Source of the DNA: Candidatus Heimdallarchaeota archaeon
Lineage (GTDB): Archaea > Asgardarchaeota > Heimdallarchaeia > Heimdallarchaeales > Heimdallarchaeaceae
Direction: 5' to 3'
DNA: 64,000 bases
Assembly (NCBI GenBank): GCA_016840095.1
Contig: JAEOSZ010000095.1
Span: 46,060 to 110,059 of the forward strand
Position 1 is the stretch's first letter. Every line of letters starts with the position of its first letter. This document shows, piece by piece, positions 7,825-41,833 of this stretch. The notes below the pieces were generated by a model. That model searched no databases. It saw nothing but the letters and a program-made list of their open reading frames with translations, and was not told the DNA's origin. A program made the translations under genes and the position numbers.

Positions 7825-8298
7825 CTAGATATAGAGTGTGATTTCTGCTTTAGATGCGAATTCTAAGAAAGTTGCTGCACCACCAGGTGTACAATCTTCA
7901 ATAAGATCCTTATCTTTAATTTTCATAACTGCTTTTGTCATTTCACAAGCTATTAGTTGTACTCCAGATTCTATGGCTATATCCATTAGCTCTTGAAGAG
8001 TAGCTACATTTGCTTTCTTCATCCAACTCTTCATCATTTTGGTTGCCATACCTGTCATTCCAGGTAACATTCCAACGATTTGAGGGATTGGCATTGGCAT
8101 TGCAGTTTCTCCAGCAGGAGTGATTTTTATTTTCTTTAATTTCTTCTTCTTCAGTAGGTTCAAACCGAAGAAAGTGAAGAAGATTCCTACTTCATAATCC
8201 ATAGCTGCAGCTGTTGTAGCCAATAGTAATGGTGGATATGCTCCAGGTATATCAGCTTTTGAAGCTATTATAGCTAATCTTTTCTTTTTTTCAGACAT
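7825..8298 (-). CDS. DsrE/DsrF/DrsH-like (DsrE2) protein
   Basis: AYPPLLLATTAAAM, IFFTFFGL, LIACEMT, GAATFL. Confidence 0.9.
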   Translation of the reverse strand: MSEKKKRLAIIASKADIPGAYPPLLLATTAAAMDYEVGIFFTFFGLNLLKKKKLKKIKITPAGETAMPMPIPQIVGMLPGMTGMATKMMKSWMKKANVATLQELMDIAIESGVQLIACEMTKAVMKIKDKDLIEDCTPGGAATFLEFASKAEITLYI

Positions 8299-8311
8299 AT
8301 TTATTCCTCGT

Positions 8312-8560
8312 TTATTTTGTTTTTTTAATTACATAACGAAATATTCCGTTATCAACGGATTGATCCGCTAATTCGTGTCCAGTTGAATTGGTCCATGCTT
8401 TGAAATCTGCAACAGATCCTGGATCAGTAGCAACAACTTCTAGGTACTCCCCAACTGCTATTTCTCCAATTGCTTTCTTTGTTCTTAAAATTGGGAGAGG
8501 ACAACTTAGATTTTTTGCGTCAAGTGTTTTTGCGATTTTTATATCAGACATTTTTTTCAC
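8312..8560 (-). CDS. tusA: Sulfurtransferase TusA family protein
   Basis: LDAKNLSCPLPILRTKKA...ATDPGS. Confidence 0.93.
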   Translation of the reverse strand: MKKMSDIKIAKTLDAKNLSCPLPILRTKKAIGEIAVGEYLEVVATDPGSVADFKAWTNSTGHELADQSVDNGIFRYVIKKTK

Positions 8561-8561
8561 C

Positions 8562-9704
8562 TTACAAATAGCCCTTAATTAGAGCCTTGAAATAAACAAT
8601 TTTGAATGCTTTCTTGAATAATCCATATAGAAATAAGTTGTGTAAACCAAATTTTCTAGGAGCATAGTTATAACTAAATACCAATAACATTGATCTGCGG
8701 AATGAAGTGACTACAAAACAAACAGTAAAACCTCCGTATTTCTTAGTAGGTTCCTTTCCTTTCATTTCAAGTAGAATGTTTTTTATCAGCGCAGGAGCTG
8801 AAAAATGAGCAGCTGCTCCAGATTTTGAAATTGGCATATCAGTGCAATCACCTATTGCATACATACTTTTCTGATCTTTTACTTTTAGTGTAAACTTATC
8901 AGTACGAACAAATCCTTCGCGATCTCCTATACCTGCATCGAAAATTACTTTGTGCCCAACATGAGGTGGAATTAAGACTAATAAATCGTATTCTATCTCT
9001 TCTCCTTCTAGAGAAATAATTTTTTGATTTTCTTTATCAACTTCTTCATAGTTGAAGAATTCAACAAATTCTATCCCTCGTTTGTCAAAGAGTTTTTGAA
9101 CTTTTTCAGAGACTCTTGCTTCTGGATATGGTCGCATTAGTGGATAGAGATATTTAATTGTGGTCTTATCACGTAGTTTGATCTTCCTTAGGTAAGTGTC
9201 AAGTAAAAAGGTAAATTCAGCAGGTGCGGGAGGGCATTTGTATGGTACTGTTGATGGAGAAATTACAATAGTTCCACCTTTGAAGTTCTTAAGTGCATCT
9301 TGGAATTTCTTTGTAGCATCAGCTAGATAGAAATGATGAATTTTATCATCTTCATAAGAATCAACTTGCTCTTCATCCATTTTAGCTCCTGTTGCTAAGA
9401 CTAAGTAGTCATAAAGTAGGGTTTCTCCATTAGATAAGGCAATCTGTTTCTTTTCAGAATCAATATTTGTTGCAACTGTTCTCAGCCAAGTAGCTTTACC
9501 ACTAAGGACTTTGTTCATTGGTTTAGTAAACTTAGATTGAGGATATTTCTTAAAACCCCAAAAAACGTATTGAGGTTCATAAATGTTGAATTCGTTGGGT
9601 TCAATTAAGATTACTTTGGCATCTTTTCTACGTAGTTTCCTAGCTAATTTATTAGCTACTGTAATTCCTGCAAAACCTCCACCAACAATGACTATATTTT
9701 TCAT
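8562..9704 (-). CDS. sqr: Sulfide:quinone oxidoreductase-like flavoprotein (type III-like)
   Basis: GGGFAG Rossmann motif, YDYLVLATG, YKCPPAPAEF, YAIGD, SKSG, C-terminal TVCF cysteine. Confidence 0.82.
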   Translation of the reverse strand: MKNIVIVGGGFAGITVANKLARKLRRKDAKVILIEPNEFNIYEPQYVFWGFKKYPQSKFTKPMNKVLSGKATWLRTVATNIDSEKKQIALSNGETLLYDYLVLATGAKMDEEQVDSYEDDKIHHFYLADATKKFQDALKNFKGGTIVISPSTVPYKCPPAPAEFTFLLDTYLRKIKLRDKTTIKYLYPLMRPYPEARVSEKVQKLFDKRGIEFVEFFNYEEVDKENQKIISLEGEEIEYDLLVLIPPHVGHKVIFDAGIGDREGFVRTDKFTLKVKDQKSMYAIGDCTDMPISKSGAAAHFSAPALIKNILLEMKGKEPTKKYGGFTVCFVVTSFRRSMLLVFSYNYAPRKFGLHNLFLYGLFKKAFKIVYFKALIKGYL

Positions 9705-9715
9705 AATCTAATCCT

Positions 9716-9955
9716 CTAGTGTAATTTCTTGACAATGTATTTGTCGTGATCTTCTAAGTTGATGATTTCAACTAATTCATGCTTTGCTTTCTTTATCCAA
9801 GCAGGAACATCATTACGTGTTCCTTCATCAGAACTAAGAAGAGCTAATAATTCACCAACTTCAGCTTGACGAATCATTTTAATCAATTCCATCATTGGTC
9901 CAGGACAAAAACTTCCCCTGGCATCTATTTCTATAGCGATTTCATACTCTGTCAT
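9716..9955 (-). CDS. tusA: Sulfurtransferase TusA family protein
   Basis: IDARGSFCPGPMMEL...SSDEG. Confidence 0.92.
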   Translation of the reverse strand: MTEYEIAIEIDARGSFCPGPMMELIKMIRQAEVGELLALLSSDEGTRNDVPAWIKKAKHELVEIINLEDHDKYIVKKLH

Positions 9956-10015
9956 ACATTCACCAATTGTTTCCGATTATGACATTCATCTGCACAACCG
10001 TTTTTAAGCCTTTGG

Positions 10016-10068
10016 ATTTGTATACAAATATACTATTGTACTCTGGAGTACTTGTTCGTTCTACAATA
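10016..10068. promoter_or_regulatory. Palindromic operator cluster upstream of the sulfur operon promoter
   Basis: Perfect palindrome ATTTGTATACAAAT (10016-10029); GTACTC-TG-GAGTAC (10038-10051); TATTGTA...TACAATA. TATA-like TTAAAAA on the minus strand at about 10001-10007. Confidence 0.5.
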
Positions 10069-10123
10069 AGTAAATCTGTTGAACTAGTGATATTTATTAA
10101 TAGTTAGTATACTTTATTGAATA

Positions 10124-11809
10124 ATGAATAGAAAAGCTTCAGCAGTAGTTACGATTCTACTCTTTCTTAACTATCAATTTCTATCTGTTGCAATTGATGC
10201 TTCTATACCTATTAACATTAGAAAACAAGAAGCAGAACCATATCATTGGATTTGGGAAGAGCTTTACGGAGCTCCAGGTTCCATACCTGGAGAAGATGTT
10301 GTTTTCTGGGGAGAAAATCTAGGTCCATATCATAACTATACTGAACTAAGTACAAGACTGTCGATACTCAATTCAACCTTCTCAGAGTTTGTTGATTTAT
10401 ATTCAATTGGTCAAACCTGGCATGGGAGAGAGATTTGGTGTATTAAGTTAACTAATGAAACAGTTTCTACTCCCAAAACAGAATTCTATATTGTTGGAGC
10501 TCATCATGCTCGAGAAATGATTTCTGTTGAAAATTGCCTTTATTTCATTGATAAGATTATATATGAGACTGGGTTTGGATTTTATGAAAATCTTCTAACT
10601 ACAACTGAAATCTATGTTATACCCATGCTTAATCCAGATGGTCTCTCAATCATGCATTTCTATCCTGAACAAAGAAAAAATCTCAGACCAATTGATGATG
10701 AGGGAGATAACACAACTGACGAAAACCTGGATGGTTTCCTCGATGATGAACTAGAACGACTTTATTTCTGGAATGAAACTTCTAATGCGTCTGAAATTGT
10801 GCAAGAAGACCTTGATGGTGACTTCTCAATAGGTGAAGATTTACCTGGAGGTGTAGATCTGAATCGTAACTATGGAGCTTTTTGGAATGGAACAGGTTCT
10901 TCTCCAGATAAGATAAATCCTCTTTATCGAGGACCAGAACCATTCAGTGAAAATGAAACACGTGCCATTAGAGATTTTATGAAACAACATTTCTTCAATT
11001 TTGCTTTAAGTATGCATAGTGGAATTGAAGCTATTATTCCTCCATGGGGTAACAATGGTTCTCTACCAACAAAAGATGAAGTTGAATATAATGCACTAAT
11101 GGCTGAACTAAAGACTTTGACACTATTCCCCTTCTGGAATGAAACAGCTGGTTATTTAGCAAATGGTGTTTGGACTGATTACTGTTATCTTTTCCATGAT
11201 ATTGTTTGTTTTACACTAGAAGTTTATGAAACTGTATGGAATGGTAATTATTTTGACTACTACAATCCTTCTGGAAATGGAATATTAGCTAATTGTGAGA
11301 TGGTGTTTGATGCCTTAGTTTTCATGGCTGAAGGACCTCAGTTAACATACTCAAATAGTCTACCTTCAATTACAGTATTCTCACCTAGAAGTCCTAACCA
11401 AGTATTTGATAATTATACAATTGAATGGACTATGTCTGATTTGGAAGATGAGAATCTAAATTGTTCAGTCTTGGTCTCAGCTGATGGTTTTACATGGACT
11501 GTTCTTGCAGACAACCTAATTGATGAAACAAGTTATTTCTGGAATGTAACAGATGTTCAACCTGGTTCATATTACTTGAAAATTGCAGTTTCTGATGGAG
11601 ATAATTGGATCACTGATATCGGAGAGATCAGATTAAATGTTAAAAGGGAAGTAGAGAGTTCTAGATTTGGTTTCTGGTTGTTAGCCATACTATTTGGTGG
11701 TTTAGCTGCAATTTTTATTTTCTTCAATATTAGAAAACAAAAAAGTGTTGGCAAAATGTGGGATGATGAAAAAATTACAGATGAAAAAACAGATACTGTA
11801 GACAACTAA
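10124..11809 (+). CDS. M14 zinc carboxypeptidase, secreted, C-terminal TM anchor
   Basis: HHARE, NPDG, GVDLNRN, PFSENET, SMHSG; Ig-like domain and TM. Confidence 0.92.
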   Translation: MNRKASAVVTILLFLNYQFLSVAIDASIPINIRKQEAEPYHWIWEELYGAPGSIPGEDVVFWGENLGPYHNYTELSTRLSILNSTFSEFVDLYSIGQTWHGREIWCIKLTNETVSTPKTEFYIVGAHHAREMISVENCLYFIDKIIYETGFGFYENLLTTTEIYVIPMLNPDGLSIMHFYPEQRKNLRPIDDEGDNTTDENLDGFLDDELERLYFWNETSNASEIVQEDLDGDFSIGEDLPGGVDLNRNYGAFWNGTGSSPDKINPLYRGPEPFSENETRAIRDFMKQHFFNFALSMHSGIEAIIPPWGNNGSLPTKDEVEYNALMAELKTLTLFPFWNETAGYLANGVWTDYCYLFHDIVCFTLEVYETVWNGNYFDYYNPSGNGILANCEMVFDALVFMAEGPQLTYSNSLPSITVFSPRSPNQVFDNYTIEWTMSDLEDENLNCSVLVSADGFTWTVLADNLIDETSYFWNVTDVQPGSYYLKIAVSDGDNWITDIGEIRLNVKREVESSRFGFWLLAILFGGLAAIFIFFNIRKQKSVGKMWDDEKITDEKTDTVDN

Positions 11810-31905: not shown

Positions 31906-33465
31906 ATGAATTTTAATGTAAAAAACTATGGATTGATTTTAATGACTACATTAAAGACTAAAAAAGTTGATTTGGAAGTAGAAAGAGATTTTGCTCTACT
32001 TAATACAACTACACTAAATGATTTAAAAATTAAGCATTCTGCTAATGTAAAAGTGAAAAGTGATGCTGGCGAAATTATGTGTGAAGTAATTGCCACAGAT
32101 GAACTCATCGAACCAGGTTTTGTTGGTTTAAAATCTGGGACTCTTGAACTTCTAAAAGTAGCTCAGAATAAGAAGGTGAGTGTTTTCGTTAGACGAAGAC
32201 CAGCATCAATCGAATATGTGAAGAATAAAAGACAAGGAAGTATATGGAAAGAGGGAGAAATAAGAACTATTGTCAATGATATTTGCAGTGGCCAATATAC
32301 TGACCTAGAAATTTCTATGTTTACACTTGCTCAATATTATCTCGGATTAAATATGGATGAAATTCAGTATCTTACAACCTTTATGGCTGAATATGGAACA
32401 ACTCTTAATTTTGGGGAACCTGTTTATGATAAGCATTCTATAGGGGGAATTCCTGGAAATAAAGTAAGTCTTATGATTGTTCCTACTGTAGCTGCAGCTG
32501 GTTTACTTATACCCAAAACAAGTTCTAGAGCTATCACAAGTCCATCAGGAACAGCTGATACGATGGAAGTTCTCTGTGATGTGAACTTCTCTGCTGATGA
32601 AATATTAGAAATAGCACCTAAGGTTAGAGGTATGTTAGTTTGGGGTGGAACTTTAGATTTATCTCCTCTCGATGAGATAGTAATTCATAAAGTTGAACAA
32701 CCACTTGGAATTGATCCCCATAGTCAAATGCTTGCTAGTATCTTTAGCAAAAAAGTATCAACAGGAGTTGATCATATGGTTCTTGATATTCCAACAGGAG
32801 AGGGAACAAAAATGCCAACAAAAGAGGATGCAATAAATTATGCTCATGAAGCTACTGAACTTGGTAGAAGACTTGGAATTCAAATAGAAGCAGCTTTAAG
32901 TTACGGTGAGCAACCTCTTGGAAAAGCAATAGGTCCAGCACTTGAGGCTAGAGAAGCTCTAGATGTTCTTTCTGGTAAAGGTCCAACTAGTGTTTTTGAG
33001 AAAAGTAATGAGCTTTCTGGTATTTTATTTGAACTAGCTGGACTTGCACCAGCTGGACAAGGTGCTACTTTAGCCGCCGATTATATAACTAAAGGTAAAG
33101 CAAAAGCAAAAATGGAAGAAATTATTGGAGTCCAAGGTGGAAATGCATCTATAACAGTAGAAGAAATTGCTGTTGGAGAATATACAGTTGATGTCATAGC
33201 TCCAAAGGATGGCTACATCGTAAAATTGTCGAACTCGGCAGTCAAAAGAATAGCTAAAGCAGCTGGGACACCAAGACACAAAGAAGCTGGTGTCTATCTC
33301 CACAAGAAAATTGGTGACTTTTGCAAGAAAGATGAGAAACTAATGACCATTTATTCTAACAGTGAAGGAAGGCTAACTGAAGCTCTCAACCTAGCTATGA
33401 ATTTAAATCCATTTTTATTAGAAGGAATGATCATGAAAAGAATATCTTCTGGTGGTCCAAGGTAA
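31906..33465 (+). CDS. AMP phosphorylase (archaeal thymidine-phosphorylase family)
   Basis: DKHSIGGIPGNK, PKTSSRAITSPSGTAD, GPALEARE; N-terminal extension. Confidence 0.93.
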   Translation: MNFNVKNYGLILMTTLKTKKVDLEVERDFALLNTTTLNDLKIKHSANVKVKSDAGEIMCEVIATDELIEPGFVGLKSGTLELLKVAQNKKVSVFVRRRPASIEYVKNKRQGSIWKEGEIRTIVNDICSGQYTDLEISMFTLAQYYLGLNMDEIQYLTTFMAEYGTTLNFGEPVYDKHSIGGIPGNKVSLMIVPTVAAAGLLIPKTSSRAITSPSGTADTMEVLCDVNFSADEILEIAPKVRGMLVWGGTLDLSPLDEIVIHKVEQPLGIDPHSQMLASIFSKKVSTGVDHMVLDIPTGEGTKMPTKEDAINYAHEATELGRRLGIQIEAALSYGEQPLGKAIGPALEAREALDVLSGKGPTSVFEKSNELSGILFELAGLAPAGQGATLAADYITKGKAKAKMEEIIGVQGGNASITVEEIAVGEYTVDVIAPKDGYIVKLSNSAVKRIAKAAGTPRHKEAGVYLHKKIGDFCKKDEKLMTIYSNSEGRLTEALNLAMNLNPFLLEGMIMKRISSGGPR

Positions 33466-39088: not shown

Positions 39089-39481
39089 ATGTCAGAAAAA
39101 CACTTCGAAAAAATGATTAGTTTACTTGAGGACATTAGTAGTAGGTTGAAGAGAATTGAAGACAAATTAGGTGATGAAGTAGCAGTTCAATCTGGTGTTT
39201 CTGCTTTAGATATACTCTCTAAATCTGCTCTTGATTCTGGTATTAAGATAAACAAATCACACATCAAAACCTATTTCACTGTTCAAAAGATTGGTAAAGC
39301 TACTTGTAAAGAAGTCGCAGAAGTTACAGGTAGAGCTTTCAATCTAGAATCTAGATATCTTGTAGCATTATTTAATGAAGGATTTTTAGATAGAGAAAGA
39401 GTCCCAATTCAAAAACCAAGTAAAGATAATCCTGCTGGTCGAGGTACTGAAGTAAGATATTTTGTTAAGGAGAGGAAATAA
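39089..39481 (+). CDS. Coiled-coil plus winged-helix DNA-binding protein
   Basis: ATCKEVAEVTGRAFNLESRYLVALFNEGFLDRER...VRYF. Confidence 0.8.
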   Translation: MSEKHFEKMISLLEDISSRLKRIEDKLGDEVAVQSGVSALDILSKSALDSGIKINKSHIKTYFTVQKIGKATCKEVAEVTGRAFNLESRYLVALFNEGFLDRERVPIQKPSKDNPAGRGTEVRYFVKERK

Positions 39482-40246
39482 ATGAAAACAATTAGTGTAC
39501 ATAGTTATAAAGGTGGAACTGGTAAAACAACCTTTCTACTCAATATTGCTGGGTTACTTGCTAAGGAAGGAGCTAAGACTATTGCAGTTGATTATGATCT
39601 GAGAGCTCCATCTTTTCAATCCTATTTCAAAGTGGAAAATCCATTATATTTGTCAGATTATCTTCTAGAAGGTGCTTCTGAATCTGAAATTATCTTTCCT
39701 TGCATAGCAAGTAATGGTATTAAATTGGATCTAATATTCTCTTCGATGGAATTTCTCAAACAACATTCACAACAAAGGGACAAATTATCAAGAGATGATT
39801 CAAAATATCTAACTAAGCTATTTCAATTGCAAAGTAATTTATCTGAAAAATATGATTATATGTTACTAGATACGATTCCTGGTTTCTTTTACCGTTCGAT
39901 TGATTCAATGATGGTTTCGGATATCATAATTGTAATTGCTACACCCAGTGTTTCGAATATTTTGGGATTGAATGAGTTAACAGATAATATCTATGCTATG
40001 TTGAAAGAAGACACAAAGATGATTTTATTGATTAATAAGATAGATGAAGAAGGAATTGAAGCAGATAAGGAACTTTTTGAAAAAAGTTTATCAACGCTTA
40101 AGAGAATAGGTAAAGAAAAATTCTCTTCTGTGCTTGAAATACCATATTTAAACATTTTGAGCGAAAGAATATACGCATTTGAAGATGAAATTCCAGAAGA
40201 GTTTATGAAAGCAATAAAAGAAATAATGAATCTAATGAAAGGGTAA
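39482..40246 (+). CDS. ParA/MinD family ATPase
   Basis: Deviant Walker A SYKGGTGKTT, VDYD, YMLLDTIPG, LINK. Confidence 0.92.
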   Translation: MKTISVHSYKGGTGKTTFLLNIAGLLAKEGAKTIAVDYDLRAPSFQSYFKVENPLYLSDYLLEGASESEIIFPCIASNGIKLDLIFSSMEFLKQHSQQRDKLSRDDSKYLTKLFQLQSNLSEKYDYMLLDTIPGFFYRSIDSMMVSDIIIVIATPSVSNILGLNELTDNIYAMLKEDTKMILLINKIDEEGIEADKELFEKSLSTLKRIGKEKFSSVLEIPYLNILSERIYAFEDEIPEEFMKAIKEIMNLMKG

Positions 40247-40248
40247 AA

Positions 40249-41622
40249 ATGGCTGAAAGTAAAAAAGCAATTGGAAATGGAGAGCTAGAAAAAATACGCG
40301 ATTATCTTCAAGATTCAAAGAAAAACATAGACCGATTAAAAAAAGGTAAGAAACCTAGAAGAAAATTGCGTTTCGTAATTGCTGAACACAAATTTGCTTT
40401 TACATTGCTTTCTCTCATGCTGATGACAACTCCTTTCATTCCCTTAATGCTTCCAGGAGAACCTCCACCGATTTATCAACCTCCAAACTATGAATCTGTT
40501 GAACTAACTGTAGGTCTAATTGATTCCAATTTTACAGACCAAGATGGTTATCCAGTCTACGAAAAAACAGAAGCAAATACTTCTTCTGAGCTAATAATAT
40601 TGTCTTCTTTGACAAATTCTATGCTTTTACAAGCAGGATATTTACCTGAAAATGAGGAAATATACAGCAAGATTTCACTGATTCAGGACATTCTTATTAA
40701 TAGAACTTTTAGAGACGTTGAAAATCTTGATGAAAACCTAACTATCACCGAACAAATTATTGGATTGTATACTTTAGTTCAAGCTTACTTTTCTCTACAG
40801 GGAACTAACCATTCTTTTAGCTCCTCTATTATTGGTGCTGCTTATGCTACTTTGATTAACAATTATTTTGATTACAATGAAAAATTACTCTTTCAACCTA
40901 CTACTAACAGTAGTTATTTTATTGATCAAGCACTAGTTGTTTGGTTATTAACAACTTATCAGTTAGTGTTTGATGAGGATTATATTTATCATACTGTTTA
41001 TCCTGCTGATTATTATGTTGATTATCTTCTTGACTCAATTTTTCTCAATTTCGTAAATTATACAAACAACATTTTTTACAGTGAATATAATGTTACTTCA
41101 GGTGAAAAAGCTGTTGTAGCTAATTCTTTGGATCTTTCGTTCCTATCTGTTGGATTATCTAGAATTGAGAAACTACGACATTATTATTTCTATTATAGTA
41201 GTTATTATGTCCATCAAAAGGTAGTAAATGATTTTATTGATGAAAACTGGATTGTTCATGAAACGTACAAGAGCGATGATATTCGAGTATTAAAGAATCA
41301 AGCATATTTTGCTCTAAGTTCATATCTGATGAGTTTGAACACTCTCGGATCTGAACTAGTAAACTCTACAAAGCTGAATTATCTGGCTGGAGATGGATTT
41401 TATCAAGATTTAACTGATTATAAAATAACTGCTGAATCATGTTTATATGGACTATTAATTTTCGCAAGTAATGAATGGTCAAAGATACAGATTGAAAGAG
41501 AATATAGAGATGATATACCAACAGAATATACTTATCCTTCACTGTTTTGGAGTCTTCTAGCAACTCTTTTCCTTGCAATAGTGGTGCATAGAAAAACAAA
41601 GAAGAGAAAAAATTCATGGTGA
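40249..41622 (+). CDS. Surface protein with N-terminal TM and C-terminal anchor
   Basis: TM near residue 48-68, helical ectodomain, C-terminal TM plus RKTKKRK; stop codon overlaps the tRNA 3' end. Confidence 0.75.
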   Translation: MAESKKAIGNGELEKIRDYLQDSKKNIDRLKKGKKPRRKLRFVIAEHKFAFTLLSLMLMTTPFIPLMLPGEPPPIYQPPNYESVELTVGLIDSNFTDQDGYPVYEKTEANTSSELIILSSLTNSMLLQAGYLPENEEIYSKISLIQDILINRTFRDVENLDENLTITEQIIGLYTLVQAYFSLQGTNHSFSSSIIGAAYATLINNYFDYNEKLLFQPTTNSSYFIDQALVVWLLTTYQLVFDEDYIYHTVYPADYYVDYLLDSIFLNFVNYTNNIFYSEYNVTSGEKAVVANSLDLSFLSVGLSRIEKLRHYYFYYSSYYVHQKVVNDFIDENWIVHETYKSDDIRVLKNQAYFALSSYLMSLNTLGSELVNSTKLNYLAGDGFYQDLTDYKITAESCLYGLLIFASNEWSKIQIEREYRDDIPTEYTYPSLFWSLLATLFLAIVVHRKTKKRKNSW

Positions 41623-41754
41623 CCAGGAGGGGATTTGAACCCCCGATCACATCCATGATAGCTTGAGGGAAACTTCCTATCAAGTCCCCAAGGATGTATC
41701 ATACCATTCAAGATAGAAGGGCCTCAACCCTTCTATTAGCTTGACTACCTGGTC
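41617..41754 (-). tRNA. tRNA-Pro(GGG) with two introns (31 nt in the D-loop; 30 nt at 37/38), CCA encoded
   Basis: Acceptor stem GACCAGG/CCTGGTC+ACCA; D stem GTCA/TGAT; anticodon stem CATCC/GGATG; T arm GGGGG-TTCAAAT-CCCCT. Introns at 41737-41707 and 41685-41656, each in a BHB-like fold. Mature length 77 nt. Confidence 0.92.
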
Positions 41755-41787: not shown

Positions 41788-41802
41788 AATTTAAAGCTTT
41801 TC
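41788..41802 (-). promoter_or_regulatory. BRE/TATA promoter of the tRNA gene
   Basis: Minus strand GAAAAGC-TTTAAATT about 35 nt upstream of G1. Confidence 0.6.
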
Positions 41803-41833
41803 TATCTTAAGACTTTAAGTTCACTAGTAAGAA

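Follow-up and report, generated by a model that had tools for sequence, protein, structure and literature searches.

A tRNA-Pro(GGG) Gene with Two Probable Protein-Spliced Introns, One of Them in the D-Loop, in a Heimdallarchaeaceae Archaeon

The Locus and Its Spliced Product

The transfer RNA (tRNA) gene described here, tRNA-Pro(GGG), lies in a stretch of 64,000 nt (the window) of a metagenome-assembled Candidatus Heimdallarchaeota archaeon, a member of the Asgard family Heimdallarchaeaceae. It occupies the minus strand from 41754 to 41617 and is divided into five pieces, three exons and two introns. The gene is very probably a working one whose two introns are removed by protein enzymes. A sequence-only reading of the window had proposed its exon and intron coordinates, the 77-nt cloverleaf and the loops, and all of these agree with our own reading of the sequence and with the ARAGORN call of the spliced form as Pro(ggg). 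The parts of the gene and two elements flanking it are the following.

41754-41738, minus strand: exon 1, 17 nt; 5' strand of the acceptor stem, U8 and A9, 5' strand of the D-stem, D-loop A14-U17; identical in the orthologs
41737-41707, minus strand: intron 1, 31 nt; D-loop position 17/17a; relaxed bulge-helix-bulge (BHB) motif, HBh'-like
41706-41686, minus strand: exon 2, 21 nt; D-loop U17a-A21, 3' strand of the D-stem, A26, 5' strand of the anticodon stem, U32-G37, anticodon GGG
41685-41656, minus strand: intron 2, 30 nt; at the canonical 37/38 site; hBHBh' motif whose central helix contains one U-U mismatch
41655-41617, minus strand: exon 3, 39 nt; U38, 3' strand of the anticodon stem, variable loop, T-arm, 3' strand of the acceptor stem, A73, encoded CCA (41619-41617)
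41789..41805, minus strand: promoter-like element ATAGAAAAGCTTTAAAT (BRE/TATA-type box), about 35-51 nt 5' of the mature end; putative promoter
41607..41612, minus strand: T6 run 4 nt past the CCA; likely transcription terminator, judged from the usual archaeal oligo-T terminators

The spliced product has stems of 7, 4, 5 and 5 bp (the first two being the acceptor stem and the D-stem), a T-stem closed by a G-U pair, a variable loop of 5 nt, the D-loop AGCUUGGUA and the anticodon GGG in the 7-nt loop UUGGGGU. Inspection of the spliced form found the hallmark residues of a tRNA, namely U8, A14, G18 G19, A21, U33, G37, the G15-C48 pair, the T-loop GUUCAAAU and A73. The same two introns were the top solution of a motif-driven search of the region with a pipeline that combines BHB motifs with ARAGORN. 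The genome also contains genes for Pro(UGG) and Pro(CGG), both free of introns. A second GGG gene was not found in the assembly, which leaves tRNA-Pro(GGG) as the only GGG isoacceptor seen.

The sequence-only reading warned that standard scans might overlook the gene, and they do. With default settings, ARAGORN reports no tRNA in the whole window, Rfam gives nothing at the gathering threshold for this gene, and the 41 tRNAs listed genome-wide by the Rfam tRNA model do not include it. In its intron mode (ARAGORN -i) the program wrongly reports the gene as Pro(AGG) containing an intron of 40 nt. Removal of intron 1 alone turns the ARAGORN call into Ala(GGC), and removal of intron 2 alone into Ser(UGA); we rejected all three calls. 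Elsewhere in the window, ARAGORN -i calls a tRNA-Ala with a 296-nt intron at 33028-33406 (minus strand) and a tRNA-Met with a 1957-nt intron at 8253-10299 (plus strand); neither has Rfam support, and both are probably false positives of the long-intron mode. An annotation of this genome without the tRNA-Pro(GGG) gene would make the organism seem to have no tRNA reading CCC and CCU.

Splicing Motifs and the Fold of the Precursor

The splicing endonuclease acts on a 4-bp helix that has a 3-nt bulge 3' of each strand, and it cuts after the second base of each bulge. Around intron 1, the central helix is formed by C12 A13 A14 G15 and the intron bases CUUG (CAAG/CUUG, 4/4 pairs), with the bulges C16 U17^A and A A^U17a, where the caret marks the predicted cut. 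The inner hairpin measures 10 bp, that is, 9 Watson-Crick pairs and a closing U-G, so that the motif scores H 4/4, h' 10, h 1 for its central, inner and outer helices. The motif can form only if the D-stem opens. In an ensemble calculation on the precursor, the pairs of the central helix (H1) reached a probability of about 0.95, compared with about 0.03 for the D-stem. The CAAG/CUUG helix, the 9-bp helix, the bulges and the opening of the D-stem had all been described in the sequence-only reading. It had also described an AAT bulge; the sequence and position of this element are right, but no outer helix closes it, U11-G18 being the only pair available there. Since the outer helix is nearly missing, the motif is of the relaxed type (HBh', or bulge-helix-loop) and falls short of the strict hBHBh' definition.

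Intron 2 sits at the canonical position 37/38 and, as had been noted, carries a U-U mismatch. The central helix has three of its four pairs (H 3/4), the mismatch involving U32, and the bulges are GG^A and CA^U. The inner helix has 5 bp and the anticodon stem serves as the outer helix (h' 5, h 7). The mismatch is kept in 10 of the 12 distinct ortholog rows.

How far the motif of intron 1 exceeds chance was assessed by shuffling the intron in place: 16 of 200,000 shuffles combined a 4/4 central helix with at least 5 bp in the inner helix, the real inner helix having 10 bp. The whole precursor also folds better than its shuffles (z = -4.1). Loose BHB criteria (3/4 central pairs, short flanks) return about 100 candidates in this gene, and only the strict combination together with ortholog comparison is informative; the same warning is given in a 2026 preprint on tRNA introns of Asgard archaea (bioRxiv 10.64898/2026.10.13.758758). 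The motif of intron 1 thus exceeds chance, yet the motif alone is not decisive.

Orthologs Fix the Boundaries of Intron 1

The genus is represented by 25 genomes (the present one is G000), of which 12 have a recognisable tRNA-Pro(GGG) ortholog; one more from another family brings the set to 13 orthologs. In seven congeners (G024, G013, G016, G001, G023, G020, G004) exon 1 directly abuts exon 2 at AGCU|UGGUA. This is exactly the junction that follows from the splice sites of the sequence-only reading, so the boundaries of intron 1 are fixed without recourse to a splicing motif. Were the insert placed a single base earlier or later, the D-loop would be a different one. The cuts predicted from the motif, after the second base of each bulge, regenerate the D-loop of the seven intron-free orthologs to the base. 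The intron at 37/38 is kept in 13 of 13 orthologs, including the one from the other family.

The cloverleaf itself is under visible constraint. Among the 13 orthologs, both partners are changed in 12 pairs, and pairing is kept in 95% of the cells, the T-stem and the anticodon stem being among the parts that covary; none of 500 shuffles reached the observed level, and slid controls were 30-49% paired. The exons are identical to those of G024, whereas the 2.8 kb of flanking sequence is only 70% identical. A near-identical block, ATAGAAAAGCTTAAAAT (also given as ATAGAAAAGCTT(T)AAAT), precedes the gene by about 35-51 nt in each of the 12 congeneric orthologs, and the remaining flank diverges. The ortholog junctions, the covariation, the conservation of the exons, the promoter-like block, the T6 run and the status of sole GGG copy together make a functional gene far likelier than a pseudogene.

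Splicing Enzymes and a Possible Processing Pathway

The sequence-only reading inferred a splicing endonuclease of relaxed specificity and called for its subunit type to be determined. The genome encodes two paralogs of this enzyme, EndA, in open reading frames (ORFs) of 183 and 180 aa, both with PF01974 and PF02778, located on G000:C165 and G000:C104. In two-repeat EndA models, it is the C-terminal (catalytic) half with which the 183-aa paralog aligns; its best matches are the catalytic alpha subunits of Aeropyrum pernix (3e-41) and Pyrobaculum aerophilum. Its catalytic Y, H and K motifs are aligned (DFAVY, LEHSP, VRK). The alignment with 3p1z_B continues through the Crenarchaea-specific loop (L1/CSL), GKPMGVRKPNLGDEF against GQPLDVEKPR-GADF, and places K39 opposite K44 of A. 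pernix, a residue on which the cleavage of D-loop and relaxed introns depends there (Hirata et al. 2011, PMC3241643). The 180-aa paralog matches two-repeat EndAs over their N-terminal (structural) half and beta-subunit models weakly, and has Lys at the position of the catalytic His. The pair thus has the (alpha-beta)2 arrangement with L1 and is predicted to form a heterotetramer, which supports the inferred relaxed specificity. The alpha subunit is 92% identical to that of Candidatus Heimdallarchaeota archaeon AB_125, to which the genome is close, and all of its close matches come from Heimdall metagenome-assembled genomes. For A. pernix, both the (alpha-beta)2 assembly and a broad substrate range have been published, and the same has been inferred for Asgard archaea including AB_125 (PMC5829648). 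The genome also encodes RtcB.

From the gene, the exact boundaries of its inserts, their motif geometry and the enzyme genes, we infer how the precursor would be transcribed, cleaved and ligated. Transcription from the conserved putative promoter would give a precursor of about 140 nt with both introns. In this precursor C12 and A13, which belong to the 5' strand of the D-stem, would pair together with A14 and G15 with the CUUG near the 3' end of intron 1 and so replace the D-stem. The resulting helix of 4 bp would stack on the intron's 10-bp hairpin and be followed, 3' of each strand, by a 3-nt bulge. An (alpha-beta)2-type EndA would then make its cuts at U17^A and A^U17a, each behind the second bulge base, and the same endonuclease would also excise the canonical intron at 37/38. 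Once RtcB had ligated the exons, the D-stem and the tertiary contacts of G18/G19 could form.

Alternative Explanations

Several observations weigh against a functional, protein-spliced gene. With a lone U11-G18 pair as the outer helix of intron 1, cleavage at the 3' site would have to rely on a broad-specificity enzyme. Placed elsewhere in the mature tRNA, intron 1 would form a complete central helix (4/4) through its CUUG at 5 of the 58 other sites, so the central helix by itself is weak evidence. For intron 2, the register favoured by the thermodynamic model differs from that of the BHB. Because intron 1 is a singleton, covariation says nothing about its helices, and a very recent disabling insertion would show no decay yet. 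The assembly is 89% complete, and a further GGG gene may therefore lie outside the assembled part. The metagenome collection contained no spliced 37/38 junction, which is uninformative since tRNAs are rarely assembled.

Most of these points could be turned into an argument for a fresh pseudogene, in which the D-arm has only just been disabled by an insertion of 31 nt and the resemblance to a BHB is fortuitous: no other genome shares the insert, its motif is without an outer helix, about 9% of the alternative sites for intron 1 also offer a 4/4 central helix, and the assembly is incomplete. A fortuitous insertion would, however, have to account for motif-predicted cuts that coincide to the base with the boundaries known from intron-free orthologs, and for a motif whose like appeared in just 16 of the 200,000 shuffles. 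The disabled gene would also be the sole GGG isoacceptor found, with exons unchanged amid flanks of 70% identity, in a genome where two other tRNAs have D-arm introns of the same layout that are conserved in several species. We consider a pseudogene very unlikely.

It is very unlikely that the 31-nt hairpin is retained in the mature tRNA as an enlarged D-loop. tRNAscan-SE often displays Asgard inserts in this form (bioRxiv 10.64898/2026.10.13.758758), but the insert studied here pairs with the D-stem and opens it, as the probabilities of H1 and the D-stem given above indicate, and it adjoins G18 G19, on which the elbow contact depends. Moreover, it has the cut-site geometry of EndA substrates and resembles the D-loop introns that are removed in A. 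pernix and Methanopyrus kandleri (PMC3241643, PMC5829648). Highly improbable, too, are other boundaries of the D-loop intron, for example a 29-nt intron at gene positions 19-47 that leaves an 11-nt D-loop. The motif search does find this solution (H 3/4, h' 9), and ARAGORN still calls its product Pro(ggg), but it scores lower than the 31-nt solution and its product deviates from the D-loop of every intron-free ortholog. Finally, an artefact of assembly or binning has a negligible probability, even though the contamination of this metagenome-assembled draft is estimated at 7.8%: the gene is embedded in a contig longer than 110 kb with flanks syntenic to those of congeners, and a random chimeric join would not make a perfect hairpin and a BHB motif exactly within the D-loop.

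Age and Origin of Intron 1

The insert at 17/17a is confined to this genome, one of the 12 of the genus that have the gene, and no insert at that site was found in the metagenome collection. In a tree of the flanks, from which the tRNA gene was excluded and which is a local tree and not a species tree, G000 is sister to a six-genome clade with G024 as its basal member; neither G024 nor any of the five members of the other clade has a D-loop intron. Intron 1 appears to have been gained on the terminal branch of this lineage and, being present in this genome only, is probably recent.

In four genomes of the sister clade (G008, G010, G012, G018), the same gene is interrupted at 19/20 by another, unrelated 31-nt intron whose motif is relaxed (H 3/4, h' 5). 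Removal of this intron restores the same D-loop in each of the four orthologs:

L005:1515-1649, minus strand: tRNA-Pro(GGG) with the 19/20 intron
L006:1450-1584, plus strand: tRNA-Pro(GGG) with the 19/20 intron
L008:1515-1649, minus strand: tRNA-Pro(GGG) with the 19/20 intron
L009:1515-1649, minus strand: tRNA-Pro(GGG) with the 19/20 intron

With introns at 17/17a and at 19/20, the same D-loop has been invaded at least twice within one genus.

A search with blastn-short detected no other copy of intron 1 in its own genome, and no donor within 3 mismatches was present in 47 genomes of the order. Two BLAST matches into intron 1 (G001:C13:135983-136005 and G034:C34:58415-58433) were rejected as second copies, as they lie in non-tRNA sequence and are chance matches. 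Introns 1 and 2 share ATAG(G)AAG, and a match this short between A/T-rich 30-mers is expected by chance.

D-Arm Introns in Other tRNA Genes

Two further genes of the genome were identified by the motif-plus-ARAGORN pipeline as having two introns, each combining a 31-nt D-arm intron with one at 37/38. They are listed here with a third interrupted gene.

G000:C102:34754-34881, minus strand: tRNA-Lys(CUU) (L063); 31-nt D-arm and 20-nt 37/38 introns; miscalled by ARAGORN -i
G000:C152:68798-68937, plus strand: tRNA-Asp(GUC) (L062); 31-nt D-arm and 31-nt 37/38 introns; miscalled by ARAGORN -i
G000:C152:65384-65508, minus strand: tRNA-Met(CAT); intron of 49 nt (gene positions 38-86; H 4/4, h' 3, h 5) in or beside the canonical position

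ARAGORN -i labels the Lys(CUU) and Asp(GUC) genes Ile and Ala, and the tRNA-Met(CAT) gene Ser(AGA). By a rough count, about 11 of about 45 tRNA genes are interrupted, by about 14 introns (roughly 0.3 per gene), 8 of which are 30-32 nt long. D-arm introns are thus a regular feature of this genome. The D-loop position, described as rare in the sequence-only reading, is not rare in this lineage, as the two additional D-arm introns show and as the 2026 preprint agrees.

The tRNA-Asp orthologs (L065-L087) span all intron states within the genus: both introns, the 37/38 intron only, the D-arm intron only (G016, L075), and none, the intron-free form being a 75-nt gene in five genomes. The three D-arm introns of the present genome and the 19/20 intron of the sister species share one layout, consisting of a single nucleotide, a hairpin of 24 nt, a strand of 4 nt for pairing with the host exon, and AA; the tip of the hairpin reads U-G-N-G (or Y-G-N-G). 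The 19/20 intron of tRNA-Pro(GGG) (L005/L006/L008/L009) is identical at 27-28 of 31 positions to the 15/16 intron of tRNA-Lys(CUU) in G024 (L093, G024:C74), a genome whose own tRNA-Pro(GGG) is without a D-loop intron. On sequence comparison these two introns are clearly homologous across different tRNA genes, which looks like transposition. In G016, tRNA-Lys (L101) has a 31-nt intron at the same 15/16 site, with the same core and a different outer stem.

The kinship of intron 1 is less distinct. It is identical, in register, at 19-21 of 31 positions to the D-arm intron family of tRNA-Asp, one compensatory pair change included, and 824 of 100,000 structure-preserving shuffles reach that identity, before correction for the roughly six families compared. 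With no near-identical donor, this relationship is suggestive only. Intron 1 may be a recent copy from a stereotyped class of 31-nt mini-introns moving between the D-arms of tRNA genes in this Heimdallarchaeum-like genus, an idea that we put forward tentatively and consider rather doubtful. If true, it would mean that introns are actively spreading between tRNA genes in Heimdall archaea; in the Asgard lineages on which it focuses, the 2026 preprint found no such route.

Comparison with Known Systems

The pre-tRNA-Glu(UUC) of M. kandleri has a relaxed HBh' intron at 20b/21 in addition to a canonical 37/38 intron, and both are cut in vitro by the A. pernix (alpha-beta)2 EndA with its specificity loop (Kaneta et al. 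2018, PMC5829648). The gene studied here likewise combines a relaxed D-loop intron without a proper outer helix and a canonical intron. The two cases differ in the tRNA, the site (17/17a here) and the phylum, and the M. kandleri enzyme is without the L1 loop, whereas the enzyme described here has it. In A. pernix, the D-loop BHB intron of pre-tRNA-Thr2(UGU) is removed by the (alpha-beta)2 EndA, for which CSL and K44 are needed (Hirata et al. 2011, PMC3241643). The loop and the lysine are aligned in the EndA alpha of the present genome; the A. pernix case, however, concerns a single intron with a canonical BHB and is experimentally proven, whereas the present D-loop intron lacks the outer helix, shares its gene with a second intron and is predicted to be spliced.

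According to the 2026 preprint, tRNAscan-SE misses about 30% of the inserts in Asgard tRNAs, mostly those in the D-arm; the inserts lie at BHB boundaries, their gains are repeated and mostly terminal, and most Asgard genomes have two EndA paralogs (bioRxiv 10.64898/2026.10.13.758758). That study centres on Jordiarchaeia and Atabeyarchaeia and gives less than 1 insert per gene for several Heimdallarchaeia. Intron 1 resembles these inserts in its D-arm site, BHB boundary, terminal gain and missed annotation, and in the presence of two EndA paralogs. Two-intron tRNA genes with a D-loop intron are thus already known in archaea, and tRNA-Pro(GGG) fits the published Asgard pattern in every respect. 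No mention of this particular gene or of site 17/17a was found in the publications compared here, including the main text of the preprint, position labels not being searchable.

Multi-intron tRNA genes and transposed intron families have reportedly been described in Thermoproteales (by Sugahara in 2008 and Fujishima in 2010). The similarities to that group comprise several introns per gene, non-canonical sites and related introns across tRNA genes (Pro in four species, Lys in a fifth). Unlike the Thermoproteales, the present organism belongs to another phylum, and no donor copy was found for intron 1.

The sequence-only reading also held that the gene matters for the origin of the eukaryotic TSEN. 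This was overstated and adds nothing new, because the Asgard (alpha-beta)2 EndA with the L1 loop, AB_125 included, was already described by Kaneta et al. 2018 (PMC5829648). The picture of the enzyme and its link to eukaryotic TSEN are unchanged by this gene, as the enzyme type and the abundance of Asgard D-arm introns have already been published.

Neighbouring Genes

On the opposite strand, a 457-aa ORF without a Pfam match (window 40249-41622, plus strand) overlaps the 3' end of the tRNA gene by 6 nt at its own end. Upstream of this ORF are a gene for a ParA/MinD-type ATPase (39482-40246) and a 130-aa ORF (39089-39481).

Conclusions

Within one genus, the same tRNA-Pro(GGG) gene shows three states: without a D-loop intron, with an intron at 17/17a, and with an unrelated intron at 19/20. 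It provides a clean natural example of the rapid turnover of tRNA introns in the closest archaeal relatives of eukaryotes.

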